A DNA stretch of 60,405 nucleotides, counting the filler, from Ionaspis alba (lineage: Eukaryota): the NCBI GenBank assembly GCA_964255285.1. It is 9 parts of 9 records of this genome, joined end to end, with 100 filler letters (N's around TTAATTAATTAA, not from the genome) between each part and the next. Parts side by side here need not be neighbours in the genome. Positions count along the whole stretch, not along the records: positions 33,668 to 40,288 come from CAXUUL010000903.1; 8 more parts are not named here. One strand, 5' to 3'. Position numbers and translations under genes: made by a program. Of this stretch, positions 813 through 40,388 are shown piece after piece. Every line of letters begins with the position of its first letter. Position 1 is the first letter of the stretch. Below the pieces are notes generated by a model. The model made no database searches and was not told where the DNA came from. It worked only from the letters and a program-made list of their open reading frames with translations.

Positions 813-2764
813 ATGGCTGAGCAAATTCCTGGTGTAGATGAGAAAGGCGAGGGGAAGGTCGGGACAGAATCACCACCAGAGTCCATGGGTAAGGAAGCGA
901 AGCAAGAGCTGCTGGAAGACGATGGAGATAGTGAGGAAGAGGTCGTGTCTGCCAGGAATCTCCTTTTCATCGTCACAGCATTAATGCTCTGTGTTTTCTT
1001 GGTATGCGCATCCCTAAGATCTACGCCAACGATTCACCTATACTCAAACGACTCGTCATTGATCACCACTGACGCACAACAGGTCTCTCTCGACCAGACC
1101 ATCGTCGCGACCGCCATCCCCAAGATCACAGACCAGTTCCACCGTCTCGACCAGGTGGGCTGGTACGCCAGCGCCTTCTTCATCACCATCGGCGCCTTCC
1201 AATCGACCTTTGGCAAGATCTACAAGTATTTCCCTCTCAAGGCGGGCTTCCTCCTGGCCATCTTCGTGTTTGAGATCGGCAGTCTCATCTGCGCCGTCGC
1301 GCCCACCAGCACCGTCCTTATCCTCGGCCGCGCCATTGCAGGTATGGGCGCCGCCGGATTGGGCTCCGGAGCGTACACCATCATCGCTTTCTGCGCGCCG
1401 GAGAATCAACGCGCTGCCTATACCGGGCTTTTGGGCACGTCGTACGGGATCGCATCTGTTGTCGGCCCCTTGCTGGGCGGTGTCTTTGCTGAGAAGGCCA
1501 CCTGGAGATGGTGAGATTTCCCTCTCCTGCTCTGTCTCATAACATATTTTCTTGTCCCGCCTACTCGAGTCGTCAGATCTATGTCTACTTTTTTGGGATA
1601 AGCAAATAATAACTCGAATCTCATCAGGTGTTTCTACATTAATCTACCTATTGGCGGTAAGCATATTGAGCCCGTTGATCGTTCTTCTACTGATTTGGCT
1701 TCCAGCTGTGGCTGCTGCCATTATAACCCTCACCTTCAAGGCCCCGAAACGAGCGGCTCCTGTCCAAGCCACTCTGAAGCAGAAGTTTCTACAGATTGAC
1801 CTCCCGGGAACTTTCGCAGTCATGGCTGCGATTGTATGCTATGTCCTCGCGTTCCAGGTAAGGCACCGATCCCAATATGCAATCCATGTCCATTGACAAT
1901 TTCCAGTGGGGTGGACAAACAAAGCTCTGGAGCGACTCGACTGTCATCGGCACCCTCGTGGGTGGCCCCCTGATTGTCATCCTCTTCATCGTCATTGCAT
2001 ATTTCCAGGGCGAGCGCAGTATCATCCCTCCCCGACTCTTCAAGAAACGCTACATCTGGAACAATATGGCCTTCATGTTCTTCTTCGGTGGCAGTTGGTT
2101 TACCATCCTCTACTACCTACCCATCTATTTCCAGGTCGTATCCGGCGTCAGCGCGTCCCAAAGCGGCGTCCGCAACCTGCCCCTCATCATCAGCGTCGTA
2201 ATAGCAACCATCGTCTCCGGTGGCCTCATCTCCGTAACGGGCCACTACATCTCCTGGCTCTTCGTCGCGGGCACCATGTCGACCCTGGGCGCAGGCCTGA
2301 TCTACACGCTGGGCATCGACTCCTCGTCCGGCCACTGGATCGGCTACCAGATCATCGCGGGCATCGGCTTCGGGGCCGGCATCCAGCTTCCCATCATCGT
2401 CGGTCAAGCCCTTAGCGAGCCCGGCGATATCACCACCTCGACGGCCCTGATGCTCTTCGCGCAGACCATTGGCGGCGCGTTGTTCGTCGGCGCGGCCGAA
2501 GCCGCCTACGCGAACACGTTGATCAAGGCCCTGCGGACAAGTGTCCCAAGCGTCGACCCACAATCCGTCATCGTGATCGGTGCCACGGAAATCCGCTCGT
2601 CCTTTCCCGCTGATGTCCTGCCGGGCATCATCCAGGCTGAGCTGGACGGCGTGCATGTCGCCTTTGCCCTCGCTATCGCGGGCGCTGGCATCGGCATGCT
2701 GTTTACCGTTGGTGCCAAATGGGTGAATCTGAAGGGCAAGACGCCCACGACCGCTGCCGTCTGA
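813..2764 (+). CDS. MFS drug/toxin efflux transporter (DHA2/14-TM, AflT/GliA-like), 5 exons
   Basis: GT-AG introns at about 1002-1082, 1511-1627, 1657-1705 and 1858-1906 join the ORFs into one protein. Motifs include [52 protein letters not shown] and YYLPIYFQ. Confidence 0.93.
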
Positions 2765-3509
2765 GGAGGAGTGCGGAGGGCGATATAGACTTGGATTGGG
2801 ATAGAGTGGCAAGATGATTAATCCTTGACTGATGAAGGAGATCTTGTCTAGAAGGAACGGCAGACATCCTTCGTCGGTTGGGTTTCGAGATTTTATGACT
2901 GTCTTGCATTCAAATGTTATCTTCAAAAGCGGGAAAGAAAATACCCTTCACCCAATGTATAGAGAATCATTTATTAGATAGACGCGGCGTGCGGGACCAC
3001 AACCGCTCGATCTCTAACGTCGTTTAATATTTCTCTCAATCACAGACCTATCAGGGGGTGGGGGCAGACCTTTACGCAGACAAAAACTGTGGCGAGCCCG
3101 CACTCTGCTTATGGACTCTAATATCCTATCTACGTAATCTACTTGGGCAGAATGACCCTTGCATCTCTATGGCACCGACAAAGTCCCAACACACTTTCCC
3201 TTATCCATCCATCTACCCACATTCACATATGACAGAAGAGGAGAAGAAAAAACGTAAGAAATCAAATCTCAAATTACCCTATTACCATCTATGTATGAAT
3301 CGTTACGAGATGGAACGAACACCAGACGCACTGGACTCCTCGCCGCACCCATTCTCAGAGTAGTCGTGAATCAATAAAGCTGCCCATCCACCAAAAGCAC
3401 CGCCCCAATCCGCGCGAGCGAAGTCCAACTATCACAACGCTCGCTCTTCCCCCCCCTCCTCTCTGCCCAGGCCCCGGTCCTCGAGCCCTACACTCCAACA
3501 ATCCATTCC

Positions 3510-4678
3510 CTAAACCGGAAAGATACTCCCCAACTCCCCCGTCGCCTGTACGGGTGCATATTTCTTCAAAACGTCCTCAGTCTCGGCCCACATCTTCTTC
3601 TGTATCTTCGAGCCCTTTTCACTCGTGACGAGATCCCCCGGCCTTTTTATTTCCAACCAAATATCAATCAGCATCGTAACTCCCGCCTCAGCTAAGAAGA
3701 GATGTGCAAGGAGAAAGGGGAAGGGGGGGAGAAAGAAGGAAACTCACGGCTTGATCTCGCCCTCGCTCATGTACTCGCCGTGGCTTTCGGGACCCTGGAC
3801 GAAGAGGGCGTTGAGGGCGAGGGTGGCGCCTTTGTCGGGGGAGCGGCCGACGTATTGGTCGAATTTGCGGATAAGGAGGTTGCCGTCGCGGTGGATGCTA
3901 GGGAGTTGAGGTGCGAAGTTAGTATTCGTATAATTTGAAGAAGGGGGGATTGGGTCTTCCAGACGTACCCCGTGTCCACGGCGCCCGGATTGTAGTAATT
4001 GACAATGACCTCGGAGCGGGGGGTGCGGGAGGCGAGCTCGCGGGCCCAGAAGACGTTGAGCAGTTTGGTGACGCAGTAGCGGTCCATGGCGTCCTTGTAG
4101 AGGTCCTTGTTGTTGAGCTGGTCGATGGAATTGTCGGCGGCCTGCTCGACGAACTTGGTGAACATGTGCGTTTCGGCGGAGGTGAAGGTGAGGCGGGAGG
4201 GCCGCCCGACGTCGCGGGCCGTCTTCTTGAGGATCGGGAGCAGGGCGAGCGCGAGCAGGGCCGTGGCCAGGTGGTTGACTTGCAGGCCTGTCTCGAAGCC
4301 GTTCGTCGACGTCGACCATTCGAATTTGAACACGCCCGCGTTCAGCAGCGCGGCGTCAAGTCGTGGCAGCGTGGCGGCTCGCTTTCCCATCGCCAGCACT
4401 GACTCGAAAGACTGCAGGTCCACGTCCCACACGTCGATCTTGGTCCCGGACGATTGTTGTGATTGCTGGATTGAGGTTTTGGCTGTGTCGCCCTTGGCCA
4501 TGCTCCGTACCGCTAGAATCACCCGTTCGGCGCCGAGGCCAACGCACTTGCGCGCTGTGGCCAGCCCCAGACCAGTGTTGCCGCCTGTTATGAGGATGGT
4601 TTGGCCTTCGAGTCGGAGGGTCAAGGGGAGCGAGGGGATGGAGACGAACTGGCGGAGGACAGAACCGAGGAGAGTCAT
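3510..4678 (-). CDS. Short-chain dehydrogenase/reductase (retinol-dehydrogenase-like), 3 exons
   Basis: TGGNTGLG Rossmann motif, LNAG, VNHL and catalytic YxxxK (YCVTK). Introns at about 3968-3898 and 3747-3643 lead to a last exon ...KIQKKMWAETEDVL...FPV* (TAG at 3512-3510). Confidence 0.9.
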
Positions 4679-5114
4679 TTTGGACCGATTTCGATTCTGA
4701 TTACGGATACGTGTAGGTCTTCTTCTTCTTCTCTTCCTCTAATCCGGGAGAAACGTTTGGATGTGGGATTCGGAGAGGATTAGGGGGGCATTTGTCAGTG
4801 AACTCGCGGCCTCGCTTTGAGATAAGCAAGGGAGGCAGGATAAGAGTGGCTGCCTTTGGGAACGTGGTATTTATGTTTGTGGGCGGCACAGCTGTCAGCA
4901 CCAGTCTCGGGCTTTACTAAACCCCGGCAAATCCAGATAAAGTGGCGCTTTGGCACGGGTATGCCGGTGGGGACGTGTCGTCTCTAAGATAACAGTCTAG
5001 GGCTTGGGGCTCCGGCTTAGTACAAGAGGAGGCTTTCCTCCCTAAGGTATGGCTCTTCGTGCCATTCCCCATTATAACAATATATATCTAGAGTTTTGTT
5101 CTTTCAAATCCATA

Positions 5115-6365
5115 ATGAGCGAGGACGCTCCTCCGGCACTGAAACAACGCAAATTACGGTCTAGTTGTGATCGGTGCGGTGCTGCAAAGCTGAGATGCGA
5201 CCGCAGCCAACCCGAATGCACCCGGTGCCTGTCGATTGGCATCTCATGCGTCTATGGAATGTCACGGAAAGCCGGGAAGCCGCCACGCAACAGGAACAGA
5301 CTGGACGACAGGAGTTGTGGTGGTAACACAGACGGCACTGGCAACGGGATCCTTCCGAGCCCCCGGTCGGTCTCAAGCCTGGAGAACAATACATCCGCAG
5401 CGTGGGGAAAGATGGACGGTTATCACAACAGTCTCATGACGAGTGGTCATATCTCCAATACCTTTCGCGATCATTCCATGGACCTGTCTCTTCCTGCTCT
5501 CGATTCTCTAGAGTTTGATGATAACCTATCCGCCAACCACGACACCGAACCCATCTCCAGCCTCGGATCGCCCGTGTTGGAGCCCTACTCCACTCCTACC
5601 GAGCAAACCAAGGCATCTCAAAGACGGGTCGATGAGAGCATATATTTCACCAGTGAATCCATGCTACCGATAGGCAGCAAAGACCACGACTGTTGTAGAG
5701 AAGCACACGAGATCTTGGGTCGCCTGTCTTTGCTGAACCCTTATGTTGCCTCTTCAGCATCTCGATCAGTAGCAGACTCAACGTCCGCGACATCCGGCTC
5801 CGCTAATCGCGTACCTTTGGATCATATTCTGCGTCTGAACCGCGAGTCGAACGAACAGCTCGGCTACCTCTTGGCCTGTTCCTGTGCTAGATATCCGCAT
5901 CTCGCGTTACTTTATGCATCGATCATCTCCCGTATCCTGACCTGGTATGAGCAAGCTGCGGGCTGTTCGCAGAGTGCTTTCTGGAACCCCGGAGTCGCAG
6001 TCGCGGATGCATATATGATGGGGCCCCTGTCGTCTTGGTCGGGCACCACGGCCAATACCGTCGATACAGGTGCACCCACACTGACTGGAGCCAGCGCCAT
6101 CACACCCACATACCTGACCATGGGGTCCTTCGATATCGATAACAAACAACTGCAAGCTGCCCTGAGAACTCAACTGCTCTTGGGCGAGATCAGGAGGACT
6201 AGCCATCTGATCCAGCTGTTCGCTTCACGCAGTCGCACCAGTAATGATGGATTTACCTTTAGTGGGGTCGATAGTCTATATAAGAGCCTAAGCTCTTGGT
6301 TGAGAATAGAGCATTTAAGGATCACTGATCTTATACAGTCAAAATTAAAAGAGGTGAACTTTTGA
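5115..6365 (+). CDS. Zn(II)2Cys6 pathway-specific transcription factor, AflR-like
   Basis: N-terminal CDRCGAAKLRCDRSQPECTRCLSIGISC binuclear cluster. The middle region LDHILRLNRE..LLACSCA..LALLYASIISRILTWY resembles AflR-type cluster regulators. The gene is intronless; the start is probably ATG 5115, although the ORF is open from 5049. Confidence 0.88.
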   Translation: MSEDAPPALKQRKLRSSCDRCGAAKLRCDRSQPECTRCLSIGISCVYGMSRKAGKPPRNRNRLDDRSCGGNTDGTGNGILPSPRSVSSLENNTSAAWGKMDGYHNSLMTSGHISNTFRDHSMDLSLPALDSLEFDDNLSANHDTEPISSLGSPVLEPYSTPTEQTKASQRRVDESIYFTSESMLPIGSKDHDCCREAHEILGRLSLLNPYVASSASRSVADSTSATSGSANRVPLDHILRLNRESNEQLGYLLACSCARYPHLALLYASIISRILTWYEQAAGCSQSAFWNPGVAVADAYMMGPLSSWSGTTANTVDTGAPTLTGASAITPTYLTMGSFDIDNKQLQAALRTQLLLGEIRRTSHLIQLFASRSRTSNDGFTFSGVDSLYKSLSSWLRIEHLRITDLIQSKLKEVNF

Positions 6366-11741: not shown

Positions 11742-13379
11742 TCAAACCATCTTGACCCTACAGGGTAGATTCTCGCACGGCTGGCCCGCTCCCCATTGAT
11801 ACACTCTCTCCCCATTAACGGTCTTAACGGCCTTGCTTCCTGTACCGGCATCCAGCTCCCTGTATGCAGCTTCTATCTCAAATGTCCTCACCACCAACGC
11901 CAACACAATCTTCATCTCGATCATCGACAACTCCAGGCCTATGCAAGCTCTCGGGCCATGCTCGAATGGCCGCCAAGCTCCTTTTATCGGATGGAGTGGA
12001 TCCTCTGGCGAAACGAGCCAGCGATCGGGTATATAATCATCCGGTTGTGGCCAGTACGCAGGGTCGTGTTGAACAGCATGCGATATAAGCCATAGAAGAC
12101 AGCCCTCTGTCGGATATCGCCTCCCTTCCGAATCGGTAATGCTGAACCCCGGCTCCCCGGAGCGGGTAGTCGATGCAGCCGGAAAAAGGCGAATGCTTTC
12201 TTTGATCACGGCGACTGTGTAAGGTAGTTTATTAAGGCAATATGGATCTTCCGTTATGCGAACGGCCGCTGCCGAAGGATTGAAACCAAATACTTGGTCA
12301 TGCTCGGCACGGAGACGAGCTAGACTGTCCGGATGGATAGAAAGGAGGTAAAGGATGAAGCAGAGCGAACTACTTGTTGTATCGTGGCCTGAGAAGAGGA
12401 AAAGCTTCATTTGGCTTGTGGCGAGTTTTTTGAAAGAGCTGTCTAGGCCTTGACCGGCCTCTGCGCCGGCGTTTTCTTTGAGATAGGCGGTCAAGGCGAG
12501 GTCAATCACGCTTTTACCTTGGGGTTTGTCTTGCTCCTTCCGTATTGCGAAGCGGGCATCGATTTCTGGAGAGATATGTTTGTCCATCTGCCAAGTGTTG
12601 TAAATATGGACGAAAGGCCGCAGCGGGTGGTATTGTTGGAACGGATTGCCTTCACTCCCAAAAGCCATCCAACGCATCTGCCGTCGCAGAGCGTTTACCA
12701 TTGGATTACTTGTCAACTGTGAGTTCAAGTTGGAGTCCCTATCTACAGGTCAGCAAATCGTCTCTCAGAGTCTGGCGGTATTGTCTTACAGCACAACTTT
12801 TCCAATGACATCCATTGCCAGATTGTCCGTCAGAGTCTTCATTGGGAAAACGTTCCGCTTTACAGCATTCTTTTGAAGATTTTCACAGAAGACCGCTGTT
12901 TCTAGAACGATATCCGGCACCAGAGTCATTAAATGTTTGGCATTGAATCCAGGGTTAAAAATGTTCCTCCAGAATTTCCATTCTTGGCCATCCATCGAAA
13001 CGATGTCTTTTCCGTTAGTTAAGGGAAAGAGAAAATCGCGTATAGCTGGAAACTTTGGGAGAGTATGGGCTGTAGTGATCTGAGCCAAAGTTGAAGGAGA
13101 CGCTACCACCAGGGTGAGAGAGATGAATGGCCATGCGTCTATATAGAAGATAGGGCCCATATCAGGATACGTACGCCGCAATTGATCGGGAAGGTAGTGT
13201 TGGTGGGCATCATTTGGTAGCTTCGACATGACTCTGGCGAGGACAAAAATATGACCGAACACCAGGTTCAGCGGTGGCATGGCCTATTATAGTAATAAGC
13301 CATCGCTTGAAAGCACATGTCAAAAACGCATCTGGCGATTCTTTAAGTTACATACCAAGCCTTGCCTCCGTAACTCAAG
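11742..13379 (-). CDS. Cytochrome P450, StcS/VerA (CYP59)-like; 5' end truncated
   Basis: I-helix LFSGHDTTS, ExxR (ESIR), PDRW and heme motif FEHGPRACIG are present. Introns lie at about 12748-12789 and 13284-13356. Confidence 0.9.
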
Positions 13380-16196: not shown

Positions 16197-16296
16197 NNNN
16201 NNNNNNNNNNNNNNNNNNNNNNNNNNNNNNNNNNNNNNNNNNNNNNNNNNNNNNNNNNNNNNNNNNNNNNNNNNNNNNNNNNNNNNNNNNNNNNNN
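16197..16296. other. 100-N scaffold gap flanked by an exact 55-bp duplication (assembler artefact)
   Basis: 16142-16196 is identical to 16297-16351. Confidence 0.93.
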
Positions 16297-33567: not shown

Positions 33568-36173
33568 NNNNNNNNNNNNNNNNNNNNNNNNNNNNNNNNN
33601 NNNNNNNNNNNTTAATTAATTAANNNNNNNNNNNNNNNNNNNNNNNNNNNNNNNNNNNNNNNNNNNNGGGTGCGGGGTGAGGAGGAGGTGGAGGATGATG
33701 TGCTGGTTGAGGAGGGGGAGAGCGAGAAGTAGTCGATTGAGGTTATGGTTGAGGCTGGTGAGAGGGTTGATTTGGATGGTAGTGACCAGGTTGTGCCGTG
33801 GAGGGTTGGGGGTGTTCGGGCGTGCATCTTTGTGGTTGTGGTGGTGATGATTAAGAGGTGTTGCTGTGAGAGAATGTGGGCGCGGTTTGCGCGTGTGGTT
33901 ATGCTGCTGCTTTGAAGTGATGCTTTGTGGAGCACGACGATGATAGAGAGGGCATCGATATCGGCTTGCTTGCTTGCTCGGAGTCGCGCGAGTCGAAGGC
34001 GTGGATCGCGGTTCGATAGCGGAGTGGGGAGTCAGAAAGCGAAACCCTAGAAGCAGAGCCGGACGCGTCGATTATGTAGTGCGGCAAACACTTTTTTTTC
34101 TTTCTCGCTGGTTCCAACAGGTTTGTAAACGTTCCGGGATTCCGTGACGGAATGTTTGCGTTTTGATTATGGTTATAGTAGTGGTTGGCACGGTTTGCGA
34201 TGTGTCAAAATCGGATTATTATTGTTGTCTGTAAGATCTTGTGCGCCTGGGATGGATGCGTGCGCCACGTTGCCAACAATCGACGTGTTGTTTCTTTGCC
34301 CTTTCGCGTTGCGGACGGACGGGCTGCCGGGGGCGTGGTTTTCCCCGGTTGGCGTTTGTCGGTGTTTCAGGATATTTCTGATACCCGGCGCAGGTGGAAC
34401 GTGGGAAGAGCAGCAAGGCTATGCTCGGTCTGTTTTTGTGGGGGATGAAGATGAAGTTATATTCGGAGTGCTGTGGAGGAGGCTTAGTCGGTGAGGGTTT
34501 TTTTGATTATGTATTGTAGGAGCAGAGGATTACTAGAGGAAGATTAGATGGGATGAGAGTGTAGTTGTAATATTTGGGATTATGGAGGAGTAAGCAGAGC
34601 ATGGCACAGTCATATGGCTATTTGTATTATTGATGAGCATCCACTCCGATCATGCGAACGAGGAGTCAGGCAGACCGCCAAAAGCGAAAAGCACCACTCG
34701 TAAAGCAAGAAGGAAACCCAAGACAGCATGCTAGCCATATAGCATCGCGCAAGAGCGAGTGCCTCGTGGTTCTCGCGACCATATCTTGTCACCGTTACGG
34801 TAGAGTCATCCTCACTCGTCCCCAAGCACCACCAGTTGCAACTCCAGGAAGCGTGGCAGCCTTGAACTAAGCATATGCTTCCCGGACTCCCCAGCCAGCC
34901 AGATGATACCCGTTGGCTGCCTGACTCACCGCAACCACGCCCGTCGGATGCGGTCAGCCTCAGATCCGCATGGCAATCCAGATGCAAAGCATGCAGGGCT
35001 GGTCGGGGAAGAAGGAAAGAAGGGAGAAATACGGACGAAGGTGTTGGGCTGTTGTGGGCATGAGACGGATTGGTTGCGCTGAGGGCTGGGCAGCGTGGCG
35101 GCGTTGCGGTCGCCCCGAGGTAAGGCGATGGGCTGAAGGATTGGGTGGGAGAAGAGGGTGGTGAGTGGTAAATGCTGTATGGTTATTTCGCAACGGGCAA
35201 ATGGGGCCAGTCCGATGGAAGGGGAGATGGAGATTGGTTGGAATTGGCGGTGTGGTCACCGCTTGTGCAAGAGATTCGGCCTGGACTGGCCAGTCCGGCG
35301 TTGGTGATGGGAGAAATCGGATTGAGGATGAGGAGGAAGTGTTTTGTGCTGTTTCTGGTGAAAGGTGCGATATCCGACGGTAGGATGACGGTGAATCAGC
35401 GGGGCCGCAGTCAGCTGAAGCGGCGTGGAAGGAGCGTAAGAATTTCCACTCCGGGGAGTCAATAGAGGACGGCTCACCGTGGCATTACAAATTAGGGGCG
35501 AGATGTCCGGGGAGGACCAGCGGGAAGAGCCCCTGGTTCGCCGAGATGTGCTGTGCCCGGGGACTTCGTCAACTAAAACAATTATCCATCGATTATTACA
35601 TATTACCAACCTCCGCCTACTCTAGCCTATCACCGTGTTGCTTATAATTCTCTCCGGGTCTGGCTCCTCGTAACACACAAGGCAACCTTCACCAGTCCTA
35701 GCAGCATCCATCAATACCGGCTTGAGATTGTTCAAAGAAAGATTCTGACCTTGGATGGCATATTTCGAGTAACGGCGACTCCGTACAAAGTTACCAAACA
35801 TTCTACTAGAATGATTCTTGAATCATCAATATCTTTCAATATACACTGTTAAAACTCCTCGTATACTGTCAAATCATCAACGCAGCGACCAGCTGCCAGT
35901 CCTACTTCACCCTAATCCCCACGCTCGCCCAATCTTGGCCGACAAGGCGGTGCGCCATTTCTAATGCAGCAGTTGCCTTAGATCAGAGCCGCAGACTCGC
36001 CGACTACTTACTATATTGACCCCGCCCATTTGTGAAATGCGGCTGAACGATGATCTGTGATTCTAGATGTACTTGACATGTGAGACTTGCAACTAGATAC
36101 TTGAAATATTTGTGTACAGTCTTGTTGAATAATCCTTCATCCTAAGAGTTGTTGTGATTTGTCTAAATCCACA

Positions 36174-37564
36174 ATGGAGCCGCTGGCGGTAGTTGCGAGC
36201 ACTTTGACATCCCTTGACAATACAAAGAAGATCGTGTCAATCACACTCGATCTATATAAGGCCCCGCAAGAGCTCAAGGCGTTCCAAATCTCGTTGGGAA
36301 AGGTCGACAACACACTAAAAGAAGTCCAGAGTCTCTCCAAGCAGCGCCTGCGAGCTCCATTTCTCGTTGCTGTACTTGGCCGAGCTCATCTTCTCAGCGA
36401 ATATGCTTGCGAGTTTGTTCGTCACCAGCTTCTCAGAATTGGATCTAAGGCGAGGGTCAAGCGATTAGCATGGCTCCGTTACCAGCGTAAGGTACAGGAG
36501 TTGACGCTCAAGTTCAACACCTCGCGAGATGAAATTAGGGCGGGAATGAACTATGTTGCCATGTGAGTCTTTATGACGGATTTATTTTTCTTCAAGCTTA
36601 GCTCGATCAAAGCGTGTATCTGATGGGAGACAGCACCTTCACCCCGAACGGAAAACAAGAAACTGCCTTGAATCAAAACCTGCAAATTCTCGAGAAATAC
36701 ATTTGCAAATACGATCCGGGTTATCAGCATATGCTTGCCAATGGAGTCTCCAGTACCGCCATCGTCTACCCATCAGTCTCTAACCTTGCCGAAATCAAAT
36801 GTCCGGTACATATCGAGAGCGATATCGCTCTGGTCGAGCGTCTCGATAGATTCTCAAACAAAGTCCGTGTTAACGACAACCCAAAGGCCTTTATCAACAA
36901 AGGCATGCCAACGGCCCGTCACGTGGATCAGTTTCTTTACAACGTCTTGGTAATGAACGCCCTCCACAATTCCATGGATATGCTGCCCTTAAAAGGAGTG
37001 GTGCTCGACAACAAGCGCACCGTGATTAAAAGCTTGCTACTCGCCACCGCCGAAGGGAATCTCCGCAAGATTTTGCAGAAACCTCAGCAATTCATCACGA
37101 ATCTCGCTCCAGGTGCCCAGATACCTTGGCCCCAACGAGAACGCTGGGCTTGGCAGATCGCCCGCGGCCTCGGCGAACTCCACGTCCACGGCTTCATACA
37201 CGGCGACTTAAAGCTTTCGAATATCCTCGTTACAGGAAGCAATAACGCGAAGATCTCCATGCCCGACGAGGACGAATTCAGTGTGGGGTGGGAGCCTCCC
37301 GAAATACTACCTTTGATCAGGGCGGGCACCGAAACCAGCCGCCTCAGGGGTACGAAAGCAGACATCTACCAGCTGGGCATGATACTGTGGGCCCTAGCAA
37401 CCCACGAACCGGAACCCGAAGCTCAGGAAAGACCCTTTCCCGCGATCCCCTCTCAGATTCCGAAGTACTATCGCTCTCTGGTGGAGAATTGCCTGTTCGA
37501 GAAGCCGAGTCACCGACCGCGAATAGGGAGGGTGTGGGATGCATTCCCTCAGAACATCCGGTGA
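36174..37564 (+). CDS. HeLo-like N-terminal domain fused to a degenerate protein-kinase domain (about 439 aa, 2 exons)
   Basis: Intron 36563-36633 (GTGAGT..CTGAT..CAG) joins the 36159 and 36614 ORFs in frame. The N-terminus reads MEPLAVVAS..KAPQEL..KRLAWL..KVQEL. The kinase region has QIARGLGELH..IHGDLKLSNIL, GWEPPE and ADIYQLGMILW, but no DFG. Confidence 0.8.
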
Positions 37565-39051
37565 AGAAACGCCTGAGCCGTATGACCCGCATGGTCTCAG
37601 TCGAGGTACGTCCACTCCCTTTCTGTTTTCACGGCCGCCAAAGGTTCCGTACCAGCTCCAGGGCGGCTCGTTGGGCTGGCCTTTGGGGATTCCCGTGCAA
37701 GATTTTGAGCCAGCCATTGTGATATGAGGCTGCTTTGGTTCTTGGACATACTTGAGTCAGATCTTAATCTGCTCACAGGATCTCACTCTCCTGACGCTTC
37801 AGTTTTATCTAAGGCTTGTAAGGCCGTCTTTGAGATCTGCGTGATCTCCTCTATTACATTGTCTAGACGACATTGCTGTGAATCTAGTGTTCCAAAAACT
37901 CCATCGCTCCCTGTGCTTAAGTGGTCGATCGACATACTCACGCACCTTTGTGGCTATGCCGAGTGGGATCTCGTCAATCTAATTGGCTGACTAGGCGCGG
38001 CTCTTCTCCGAGCACTGATCGAACTGTCTCTACCTTAACGGCCCGAGGCTTGTCTAAGACATCTCCGTCAATGTCTGGTTCTCCCTGCACATCGACTTCG
38101 ACGCCCGAGAATACCACCTCGTGACGGACTGGTACCTATTTGCAGGTTCCAATCCCGCTTCAACTCGTATTTTGGAACCGAGATATTGCAGGATGGTTCG
38201 CATGGACCTCGGCTGGCAAGTCGAATAGTATTTCGACGCAAATGCATGATAGGGTCTGATGAGCTGCTGGCGATCTCCTGTCATACGTCATCGCAGGCGA
38301 GAATCTTGAATGCTCAATTGAGCATGACTCTTCATGGACATCATCTCAAGGGCATATCATGAGGTCCTATTGATCCGCTTAGTTAGATATAGTATGCCTG
38401 GTACCCCACACTCTGTGCGACTGTACTGTGGTCTTGTCGAATAAATTTGTATGTATTGGCATTCCGATCCTACTTGCATCTTGCCTTGTTTCGTCTTTAT
38501 TACCGTGATTTTTGACAGGATCTGCTGTCGTTGTCCCATTTCCAGATACTCCTCCGCCAGATACAGGGGAGCCCTTGACCTGAAGAACAACGTCCGTGAG
38601 GCATACCACACTATATTGTTTGCTAAGACCTCCCGTGGCTTTCGACGTTCGTTTGTTCGAAAGACATCATCTGCTGCAAGTTCCTAGACGATCACCACGG
38701 ACATACGTCCCAGATAGAACTCAGAATATGTTGCTGAAATGCGTTTTTCGTCTTCCTCTTTCTTGTTTGGTGCTTTGCGGCGAAAGCTAATATATGGTGC
38801 GGAAACAACCATCTAGCCGCGCCGTACAATTTTCTCCTCCATTTCCTGCTCGATCCTCTCTCATCTCACATTCTATTCTCAGCCAATTCCCCGCTTCTAG
38901 TGTAACAGTCCTTCGATTCCACGTGAATCATGATGACTTTCATCTCCGGCTTCAAAAAGGTACTTCATGTCGCCCTCTCTCCCACTTTCTGGGTCTTTAT
39001 ACAGGAACGGAGAACATAGAACACATCTCCTACAGCATATACACCGTTGCC

Positions 39052-40288
39052 ATGACGATGCTCTATATCTATTCTATTCTTTCAGTCTCTTTACTCTATT
39101 TTAGCATACTTGTGAAATGCTTTCCTGATCCGGGGAGCTGCGCAGGTGAATGTGGTTACGTCCACGACCCTTATGTTGTCAGGCGTGATGATGGCACCTA
39201 CTTTCGCTTTGTGACCTTCAAGGACATTCAGATTGCTTCGGCTCCATCTATCAAAGGGCCATGGCGTGGGCAGGGCTCTGTTTTGCCTAGTGGTTCGATG
39301 ATTCCACTTCCTGGGAATGATAGCTTATGGGTAAGTCGACCATTCATATACTAAGACATTAACATACCATGGTATGGGCAGTCTGTCTATTGGCAGCGGT
39401 CACCAAGCCATGGCCTGCTTTGTGTGCCAGTCACCAAGCCGGTTCAAAGTCAAGCACACCTTCATCTCATCTATCTCCCTATTTGCCTATACTCTTCGTG
39501 CCCAGAACCACTAACCCCTCCTCCCGTCCAGGCACCCGATGTCCACCAAGTCGGCTCAACCTACTACCTCTACTACGCTGTCTCTACAGCAGGAAGCCAG
39601 AACTCCGACATCGGCCTTGCTACCTCCCAAACCATGGAACGCGACTCCTGGACCGACCACGGCAGTCTCGGTATCCCCCGCTCCGAGCACTACAATCTCA
39701 TCGACCCCAACCTCCTCATCGTGAACTTCAACACCTCAGACCTCTACATGACCTTCGGCTCCTTCTGGGACGACATCCATCAGATCCGTATGCTCGATCC
39801 TGCCACCCCCATGCCGGGCGCTGTACCCCAGCAGGTGGCTTACACGGCTGAGGGTGCGCATCCGCTCGAGGGAAGTTTCCAATTTTGGTGGCCCATCCAG
39901 GGGGTGCCTTATTATTATTTGTTCGTCTCGAGGGGCGCTTGCTGCAACGAGCCACCGAATCTGGCGCCGCCGGGTCAGGAGTATCAGGTTATAGTCTGTC
40001 GGTCGTTGCAGCCGACGGGGCCGTTCGTGGATAGGCAAGGGAGGGATTGCAGGGAGGGAGGTGGAGAGTTGATCTTGGCCAGTCAGGGCGATGTGTATGC
40101 GCCGGGCGGAGAAGGGGTATATTATGACCCGGATCTGAATAGTCCGGTGCTTTATTATCATTATGGTGAGTTTGAGCAAGAGGATCTGGGAGAATGGTCA
40201 GGAGTACTGATTACAGAATAGTGAACAAGACGATTGGTTACAGGGAAGCAGATTTCCAGTTTGGGTGGAACCCTATGGTTTTCCGGGA
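39052..40288 (+). CDS. GH43 endo-1,5-alpha-L-arabinanase (secreted), 3 exons, extreme 3' end truncated
   Basis: Signal peptide, [43 protein letters not shown] and LYYHY. Introns at about 39331-39531 and 40166-40221. Confidence 0.92.
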
Positions 40289-40388
40289 NNNNNNNNNNNN
40301 NNNNNNNNNNNNNNNNNNNNNNNNNNNNNNNNTTAATTAATTAANNNNNNNNNNNNNNNNNNNNNNNNNNNNNNNNNNNNNNNNNNNN

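Follow-up and report, generated by a model that had tools for sequence, protein, structure and literature searches.

Within a window of 60,405 nucleotides of DNA from Ionaspis alba (NCBI GenBank assembly GCA_964255285.1; the window is the whole stretch of DNA that we analyzed), we identified on the plus strand, at positions 36174 to 37564, what is predicted to be a single spliced gene for a protein of 439 residues, in which an all-helical N-terminal domain precedes a degenerate kinase fold. As we read it, the protein would consist of three parts: a helical domain of ~125 residues that is probably SesA/HeLo-like (PF17107/PF17111), a poorly ordered linker of ~40 residues, and a TKL/RIPK-like fold that lacks the αC Glu, the DFG Asp and the Gly loop and keeps HGDLKxxN and one β3 Lys. 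We consider it very likely that a helical N-domain and a kinase fold are indeed combined in one gene. On balance, we also favor the fuller reading in which this one spliced gene encodes a protein of helical domain, linker and pseudokinase that acts as proposed below.

The gene comprises two open reading frames (ORFs), at 36174-36566 and 36614-37564, which an earlier note on the same DNA had taken to be one gene joined by a 71-nt GT-AG intron with a branch site. Our analysis upholds that proposal. Once positions 36563-36633 are removed, the two ORFs are joined in frame in a coding sequence of 1320 nt, which stays open through 439 codons up to its TGA, and the codon split by the intron, AT/C, encodes Ile. 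ORF 1 has 130 codons and its own TGA at 36564-36566; the donor at 36563 is the only one that combines a consensus hexamer with a position directly ahead of that stop, and the branch A of the putative CTGAT motif lies 10 nt ahead of the acceptor. Codon usage was scored against that of 11 confident genes in the window, which themselves score 0.09-0.18: in the proposed frame, exon 1 had log-odds of 0.161 and exon 2 of 0.112, both host-like, and the remaining five frames were all negative. The GC (guanine plus cytosine) content is 0.41 in the intron and 0.50 and 0.53 in the exons, with a GC3 of 0.61 for the coding sequence. In-frame joining alone is not rare, the scanned stretch having 24 in-frame GT..AG pairs. 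A second in-frame acceptor, AAAG at 36609-36612 (ending at 36612), would give a 50-nt intron and seven additional residues. In a public protein collection the two ORFs are stored separately, as P0153 (130 aa) and P0003 (313 aa), because prokaryote-style ORF calling splits a spliced gene. The automated start of the 313-aa ORF, ATG 36623, falls within the 71-nt intron, where it overlaps the CTGAT motif. No joints were visible in contigs of three sequencing runs over the gene, none of which is recorded as RNA.

Exon 2 is modeled as a bilobal kinase fold. Two Pfam kinase families scored above their cutoffs, PK_Tyr_Ser-Thr (PF07714; E 8.9e-15, 55.1 bits, cutoff 23.1) and Pkinase (PF00069; E 3e-13, 50.2 bits, cutoff 31.7), with both matches starting only at about profile position 42-48. 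An AlphaFold2 model based on an alignment of the window copy with 46 relatives picked for their shortness (alignment A1) reached a predicted local distance difference test score (pLDDT) of 87.1 and a predicted TM-score of 0.83, with disorder only at residues 1-38; here and below, kinase residues are given in exon-2 numbering, to which 130 is added for the full-length protein. A Foldseek search of the PDB with this model returned at least 500 kinase matches at E ≤ 0.001. RIPK1, BRAF, FGFR4 and Eph kinases were found at ~1e-13, and the MLKL pseudokinase appeared at ranks 36, 40 and 49 (5knj_B, 4m69_B and 6vbz_A) at ~3e-13. The best PDB match to the single exon-2 sequence was an internal stretch of GCN2, residues 391-522, which we take to be the pseudokinase region of that protein, and the rat MLKL pseudokinase (6vbz_A) was matched at 6.2e-5.

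To place the kinase part among its relatives, we used an exhaustive HMMER search with exon 2 against 1.84 billion representative sequences, which gave 2,176 matches at E ≤ 0.001, 245 of them at E < 1e-30. The best 150 of the 2,176 matches include the window's own ORF P0003, leaving the 149 relatives (P0004-P0152) to which the counts below refer. Similarity begins at about exon-2 residues 26-40, the phmmer alignments starting at query positions 25-41 or later. The window copy is 33-46% identical to the 149 listed relatives; its median identity to relatives is 0.39, compared with 0.68 among the relatives themselves.

These comparisons bore directly on the claims of the earlier note about catalytic residues. 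All motifs that it had quoted (FINK, FLYN, HGDLKLSN and KISMP) are present, and the alignment with fungal relatives that it had suggested, together with the RIPK1 alignment, confirmed the replacement of the αC Glu by Asn and of the DFG Asp by Met, residues that are otherwise present in 149/149 and 148/149 relatives, respectively. The absence of a Gly-rich loop and the retention of HGDLKLSN likewise stood in the alignment. In a profile-against-PDB comparison, the family sequence IID aligned to IAD of the RIPK1 DLG motif, and QGD aligned to HKD. At β3, K89 corresponds to a Lys in 149/149 relatives, and N88 stands for the Lys of 146/149. The VAIK Lys candidates are position 88 or 89; when a 95-aa N-lobe stretch of relative P0023 was compared with the PDB, it aligned only from αC on (ACK1, E 0.13). 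The catalytic loop of the window copy is nearer the canonical motif than the QGDFTLSN of the family: the relatives have Gln at position 189 (146/149), Asp at 191 (148/149), Thr at 193 (149/149) and Asn at 196 (149/149), whereas Lys193 is found in the window copy alone among the 150 sequences and His189 is common to just two of the 149 relatives. Substitutions run from I208S through P216S, and after the DFG position the window copy has an acidic run where the family has a basic NRRG.

The distribution of changes along the kinase domain also speaks to its status. Conservation among the 46 relatives reaches at least 90% in 108 columns, of which the window copy keeps 67; of the 41 invariant columns it keeps 33. 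The 41 lost columns cluster at the Gly loop, β3, αC, the flanks of the catalytic loop and a nine-residue run that opens the activation segment, and the core motifs of the C-lobe are kept, a pattern that suits a pseudokinase better than random decay. Loss of the VAIK Lys, the HRD Asp, the DFG Asp or the αC Glu defines a pseudokinase operationally, and the window copy falls under this definition. Given the αC Asn, the DFG Met, the missing Gly loop and an identity of only ~39%, exon 2 is probably best read as a pseudokinase paralogue, whose inactivity we infer from these residues; that its kinase domain is catalytically impaired we regard as a likely conclusion. Coordinates are given in Table 1.

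Table 1. Parts and motifs of the predicted gene, in positions of the window; residues of kinase motifs in exon-2 numbering
Feature	Positions	Strand	Description
Exon 1	36174-36562	+	ATG at 36174; 389 nt = 129 codons plus first 2 bases of the split Ile codon; encodes N-domain P0001 (~125 aa, predicted all-helical)
Intron (predicted)	36563-36633	+	71 nt; donor GTGAGT, branch motif CTGAT 36620-36624, acceptor CAG 36631-36633
Exon 2	36634-37564	+	931 nt; last base of the split codon plus 309 codons; TGA 37562-37564
Linker	36635-36751	+	Exon-2 residues 1-39 (full-length ~131-169); AlphaFold2 pLDDT < 50 at 1-9 and 11-38; one short predicted helix 12-19
Kinase-fold domain	36752-37561	+	Exon-2 residues 40-309; TKL/RIPK-like, predicted catalytically impaired
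Gly-loop position, degenerate	36839-36865	+	Residues 69-77; no glycine; S71D, G72R, V74S, Y75N relative to the family, whose consensus has a single Gly
β3 FINK	36890-36901	+	Residues 86-89; strand 85-90 in the AlphaFold2 model
αC Glu position, Asn103 (FLYN 100-103)	36941-36943	+	Glu in 149/149 relatives; family LYE aligns to RIPK1 LEE
Catalytic loop HGDLKLSN	37199-37222	+	Residues 189-196: H189, D191, K193, N196
DFG position SMP (KISMP 206-210)	37256-37264	+	Met209 (37259-37261) for the Mg-binding Asp; Asp in 148/149 relatives

The relatives themselves indicate where the kinase part came from. Most of those listed are proteins of 600-1400 aa with the kinase at ~300-600; a look-up of 10 proteins identified a Pyricularia oryzae member (G4MVS1/EHA54987) annotated as 'TKL protein kinase' and hypothetical proteins of Decorospora gaudefroyi (KAF1829957) and Sarcosagium campestre. 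The best matches of the family profile in the PDB (E ≤ 0.001) were 13 RIPK1 sequences at 1.7e-10 to 8.3e-10, none reaching E ≤ 1e-10. These comparisons identify the kinase part as a paralogue, and a strongly diverged one, of the family of TKL kinases conserved in Pezizomycotina. Features common to the two are the scarcity of glycines in the Gly loop, the C-lobe motifs, and an activation segment that is short and ends in GWEPPE. The window copy differs in several motifs (FINKG for IKKE, LYN for LYE, HGDLKLSN for QGDFTLSN, and ISMPDEDEFS for IIDINRRGCP) and has lost the family residues E103, D209 and K88. Membership in the group of G4MVS1-like TKL orthologues was considered and rejected, as the pre-kinase region of that family is absent and the motifs have diverged. 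Searching the window with both exons by tblastn revealed no paralogue.

The two ends of the protein set it apart from this family as well. Relatives with complete N-termini have a disordered head bearing a conserved basic motif, followed by a conserved pre-kinase region of ~110 residues, which was seen in 50 aligned relatives drawn from the 76 with at least 240 upstream residues; no Pfam family was found in the pre-kinase region or N-terminus of any of the 46 relatives scanned. The window copy has neither this disordered N-terminus nor the pre-kinase region, and it also lacks the long C-terminal tail of most relatives, the ORF stopping a few residues past the kinase domain. None of the 149 listed relatives resembled exon 1 (best E 6.6 and 9.3). 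The absence of the exon-1 domain from all of them, together with their own, different N-terminal region, points to a fusion by domain shuffling within fungi. On the sequences compared, the helical domain appears to have taken the place of the N-terminal region of the TKL family, so that the MLKL-like layout is one assembled independently and not derived from an MLKL ancestor. The suggestion in the earlier note that the likeness to MLKL is convergent is borne out in this respect: the kinase relatives belong to a fungal family with another N-terminus, and MLKL is no closer to the window copy than are RIPK1, BRAF or FGFR4.

We now turn to the N-terminal domain, which the earlier note had described as a HeLo-like domain opening with a hydrophobic helix. 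Part of that description stands, namely a helical domain ahead of the kinase fold and a helix predicted at the N-terminus. In a Pfam scan of exon 1, SesA (PF17107) was the sole family at E ≤ 10 (E 0.03, 14.9 bits); residues 7-58 aligned to positions 1-52 of the 122-position profile, the match thus starting at profile position 1 near the N-terminus. In the ESM Atlas, exon 1 had a recognition value of 2740 and a top score of 0.96. Of its 30 nearest clusters, 27 fall into sets with PF17111 and/or SesA (19 with PF17111, 3 with PF17111 plus SesA and 5 with SesA), and the other 3 lack a common family; the clusters listed are all from Ascomycota and of 129-145 aa. PF17111 is the Helo_like_N profile and, in the accessible part of PMC9815663, is counted with SesA among MLKL-related profiles. 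A single-sequence AlphaFold2 prediction of exon 1 gave helices by DSSP at residues 3-27, 31-56, 61-86, 93-114 and 118-126, that is, four long helices and one short, at low confidence (pLDDT 43.6). Because the family evidence consists of a sub-threshold SesA match and of language-model neighbors, we call membership in the HeLo-like/SesA superfamily probable and go no further.

A number of observations weigh against the reading that we favor, several of them concerning this domain. The SesA score of 14.9 bits is below the Pfam gathering cutoff of 26.3, hmmscan of exon 1 gave no match to PF17111 (Helo_like_N/PigL_N) at E ≤ 10, and in the Atlas clusters the PF17111 and SesA families are borne by just 11-18% of members. 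In the AlphaFold and Foldseek check of the N-domain that the earlier note had suggested, the single-sequence model of pLDDT 43.6 gave no fold match at E ≤ 0.001 and returned only generic helical proteins, and we discarded the model as unusable. Of the HeLo-like claim, the helical domain stands as a prediction and the HeLo membership is left at the probable level given above. As for the hydrophobic first helix, its hydrophobicity proved only moderate, with a mean Kyte-Doolittle value of 1.18 over residues 2-14, which is no greater than that of internal 19-residue stretches beginning at residues 61-64. Searches for exon-1 relatives among longer proteins and among proteins of similar length found none but exon 1 itself, and a metagenome scan with exon 1 yielded 223 pattern matches, of which 0 were confirmed. 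Against PDB sequences, exon 1 had only chance-level rows (E 0.77 and 0.89). The remaining unfavorable points concern the gene as a whole. The splice junction is a prediction from sequence; D191, N196, K89 and an Asp two residues past the lost DFG Asp are retained in the kinase domain, which makes residual or atypical catalysis possible; exon 2, in a word-indexed search of a 5.8-billion-protein collection, retrieved just its own ORF and no orthologue above 50% identity; no gene for an NLR or amyloid-motif partner is present on the contig of the gene (33668-40288); and of three listed differences in a second organism (run X2, described below), two are non-synonymous by hand translation. A complex prediction of the kinase exon with the N-domain (0.71, control 0.55) was counted neither for nor against.

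The predicted protein was also compared with known systems. With MLKL and the plant MLKLs it shares the order of its parts, in which a helical bundle of ~125 residues (the four-helix fold being only predicted here) comes first, then a linker and, toward the C-terminus, a TKL-type kinase fold without catalytic residues, and MLKL pseudokinases are among the structural matches of its kinase (~3e-13). It differs from them in that RIPK1, BRAF and FGFR4 match its kinase equally well or better and its nearest sequences are the fungal TKL family, in having its own set of degraded motifs (αC Glu to Asn, DFG Asp to Met, HGDLKxxN kept), and in showing no confident brace helices in the model, the linker being of low confidence with one short helix. 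We considered orthology with MLKL and rejected it, given that MLKL ranks behind RIPK1, BRAF, FGFR4 and Eph kinases and that the closest sequences are fungal TKL kinases. With the HeLo, HELL (PF17111) and SesA (PF17107) domains of HET-S, HELLP and NLRs, the N-domain shares its place at the extreme N-terminus, its length of ~125 aa and its predicted all-helical nature. It differs from these in being followed by a kinase fold instead of an amyloid motif or NACHT/NB-ARC, in its sub-threshold SesA match and in the lack of an adjoining NLR gene on the contig.

According to the accessible part of a review (PMC12881547, Cell Death Differ 2025), some fungal HELL domains occur on kinase or pseudokinase proteins; no examples are named in that part. 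The layout is thus less new than the earlier note had assumed, the combination of HELL with a kinase or pseudokinase in fungi being already in print there. Our search of the searchable literature, which leaves subscription papers outside, found no functional or comparative study of fungal proteins with a HeLo-like domain and a kinase or pseudokinase. The gene described here is, as far as the accessible text of PMC12881547 goes, an uncharacterized example of an architecture noted in print. What our analysis adds, from sequence comparison, is the derivation of the kinase part from a RIPK1-like fungal TKL family and the measurement of its residue losses against 149 relatives.

How might such a protein work? 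In animals, the MLKL pseudokinase restrains the four-helix bundle until phosphorylation by RIPK3. By analogy with MLKL, the plant MLKLs, HELLP and HET-S, we propose that the dead kinase would hold the helical domain in check, in the role of a regulator or receiver. The trigger that frees the helical domain would be oligomerization, phosphorylation or a partner that binds, and the freed domain would then oligomerize on a membrane and serve there as an effector of regulated cell death or immunity. N-terminal HeLo/HELL domains that have been tested in fungi (HET-S and HELLP) are, in the accessible parts of PMC12881547 and PMC10197012, membrane-targeting death effectors. By this analogy the protein described here could be one too, an assignment that we make tentatively and think somewhat doubtful. 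A more specific scheme would be an independently arisen fungal RIPK-to-MLKL module. In such a scheme, a conserved TKL kinase would be the active partner and the present gene its degenerate paralogue, which had acquired a HeLo-like/SesA killing domain, and the TKL kinase would activate the pseudokinase executioner by heterodimerization or phosphorylation, as RIPK3 does with MLKL. The reversal of charge where the activation segment opens, from the basic NRRG to an acidic run, might then mark the docking or switch site. We think this scheme improbable.

The alternative that survives best, although we think it rather unlikely, keeps the same protein and gives it a non-lethal role in signaling or as a scaffold, the helical domain serving for docking or oligomerization and the pseudokinase as an allosteric partner of an active kinase such as a TKL paralogue. 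PF17111 is named PigL_N in the Atlas, where one neighboring cluster is named 'Pigment biosynthesis cluster protein PigL N-terminal domain-containing', and the fold is therefore not confined to death effectors. In addition, the immunity conferred by plant MLKLs can be separable from cell death (bioRxiv 10.1101/681015, in its accessible part). The lack of an NLR or amyloid partner on the contig and the moderate hydrophobicity of the first helix would also agree with a non-lethal role. On the other side stand the death-effector activities of the tested fungal domains mentioned above (PMC12881547 and PMC10197012, as cited), and the sequence holds no pointer to any other specific role.

It is also conceivable, if unlikely, that the gene is a young chimera or a decaying relic in which a duplicated kinase fragment lies behind a HeLo-like exon, serves no maintained function and owes its losses to decay. 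Sequence variation gives weak hints here. In run X1, a second haplotype at about one-third depth forms a 128-nt bubble (36515-36642) with six differences, five of which are in the intron and the sixth of which is a synonymous change of a Gly codon at 36545, and a 981-nt contig over exon 2 has one synonymous difference from the window. Past the stop codon (37564-37800), the run X1 haplotype has many substitutions and indels, and the 5' flank and exons are nearly identical. Run X2 comes from another organism in the same study; over 954 nt of the gene it shows four differences, and the three listed are one synonymous and two non-synonymous changes (Asn to Ser and Gly to Ala). This pattern would fit stronger constraint on the exons than on intron and flank, a hint to which we attach little weight, since the variation is patchy and contigs drop variants. 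A relic would fit the want of an orthologue above 50% identity and of any exon-1 relative, the 39% identity to a family whose members share 68% with one another, and the X2 differences, which do not look strongly purifying. It fits poorly with 439 codons that have stayed open around a canonical intron, with host-typical codon usage in both exons, with the confident AlphaFold2 model (pLDDT 87.1), with the presence of the gene, very little changed, in a second organism, or with the 33 of 41 invariant columns and the C-lobe core motifs that are kept, the changes being clustered rather than scattered.

The retained residues raise the question of whether exon 2 might encode an atypical kinase that is still active and bears a helical domain for targeting, with catalysis rescued by the Asp two positions past the DFG site, K89 and the HGDLKxxN loop. 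D191, K193, N196 and K89 are all present, the catalytic loop is nearer the canonical form than that of most relatives, acidic residues follow the DFG position, and the whole TKL family, if it works at all, already does so without a Gly-rich loop. We nevertheless find this quite unlikely in view of the joint loss of the αC Glu, the DFG-position Asp and all Gly-loop glycines, and of the single-sequence matches to GCN2 391-522 (the best) and to the rat MLKL pseudokinase. Finally, two unspliced genes, one (36174-36566) for a helical protein of 130 aa and one, from ATG 36623, for a kinase-like protein of 313 aa, are most improbable even though each ORF has its own ATG and stop, the automated caller stored them apart and the Atlas neighbors of exon 1 are clusters of 129-145-aa proteins, because the second ATG follows the ORF-1 stop, on the same strand, after only 57 nt, which in a eukaryote leaves two genes no room for a terminator and promoter, that ATG falls within a consensus intron, the 313-aa product would open with ~40 disordered residues, and prokaryote-style ORF calling accounts for the split records. 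The reading that we prefer on balance thus continues to be that of one spliced gene for a helical domain, linker and pseudokinase.

The genomic surroundings of the gene are limited to its own contig. The window strings together separate contigs of ~6.6 kb in decreasing length, with eight spacers at intervals of ~6.7 kb between 6644 and 53803. A spacer is formed by two 44-N runs 12 bases apart, and these 12 bases are TTAATTAATTAA at the two spacers read (33568-33667 and 40289-40388); separate 100-N runs occur at 16197, 42132 and 49890. The true contig of the gene is 33668-40288, whose 6,621 bases match exactly the length on record for the contig of P0003, and a neighborhood across spacers is not real. 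On this contig, the ~2.5 kb upstream of the gene contain no Pfam-recognizable ORF, and a GH43 glycosidase gene lies downstream at ~38.8-40.2 kb; direct or inverted repeats flanking the gene were looked for and not found. Genes on the other contigs of the window (histidine phosphatase, P450s and others) look like ordinary Pezizomycotina genes. At 813-6362 and 11745-13280, also on other contigs, we observed a Zn2Cys6 regulator with an AflR domain, a short-chain dehydrogenase, an MFS transporter and P450 fragments, and these regulator, dehydrogenase, MFS and P450 pieces may be parts of secondary-metabolite clusters, split as they are over separate contigs.

HeLo and HELL domains tie regulated cell death in fungi to necroptosis in animals and to CC/RPW8 immunity in plants, and in fungi they have so far been studied only on amyloid-controlled effectors and NLRs. 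At present, the gene described here is one lineage-restricted predicted gene on a 6.6-kb contig, with an architecture that is already in print. It offers a small candidate, of 439 aa, for the gating of a HeLo-like domain by a pseudokinase in fungi. If the reading proposed here is true, MLKL-style gating of a helical bundle would have been reached in fungi as well, apparently by shuffling of the helical domain onto a RIPK1-like kinase paralogue.

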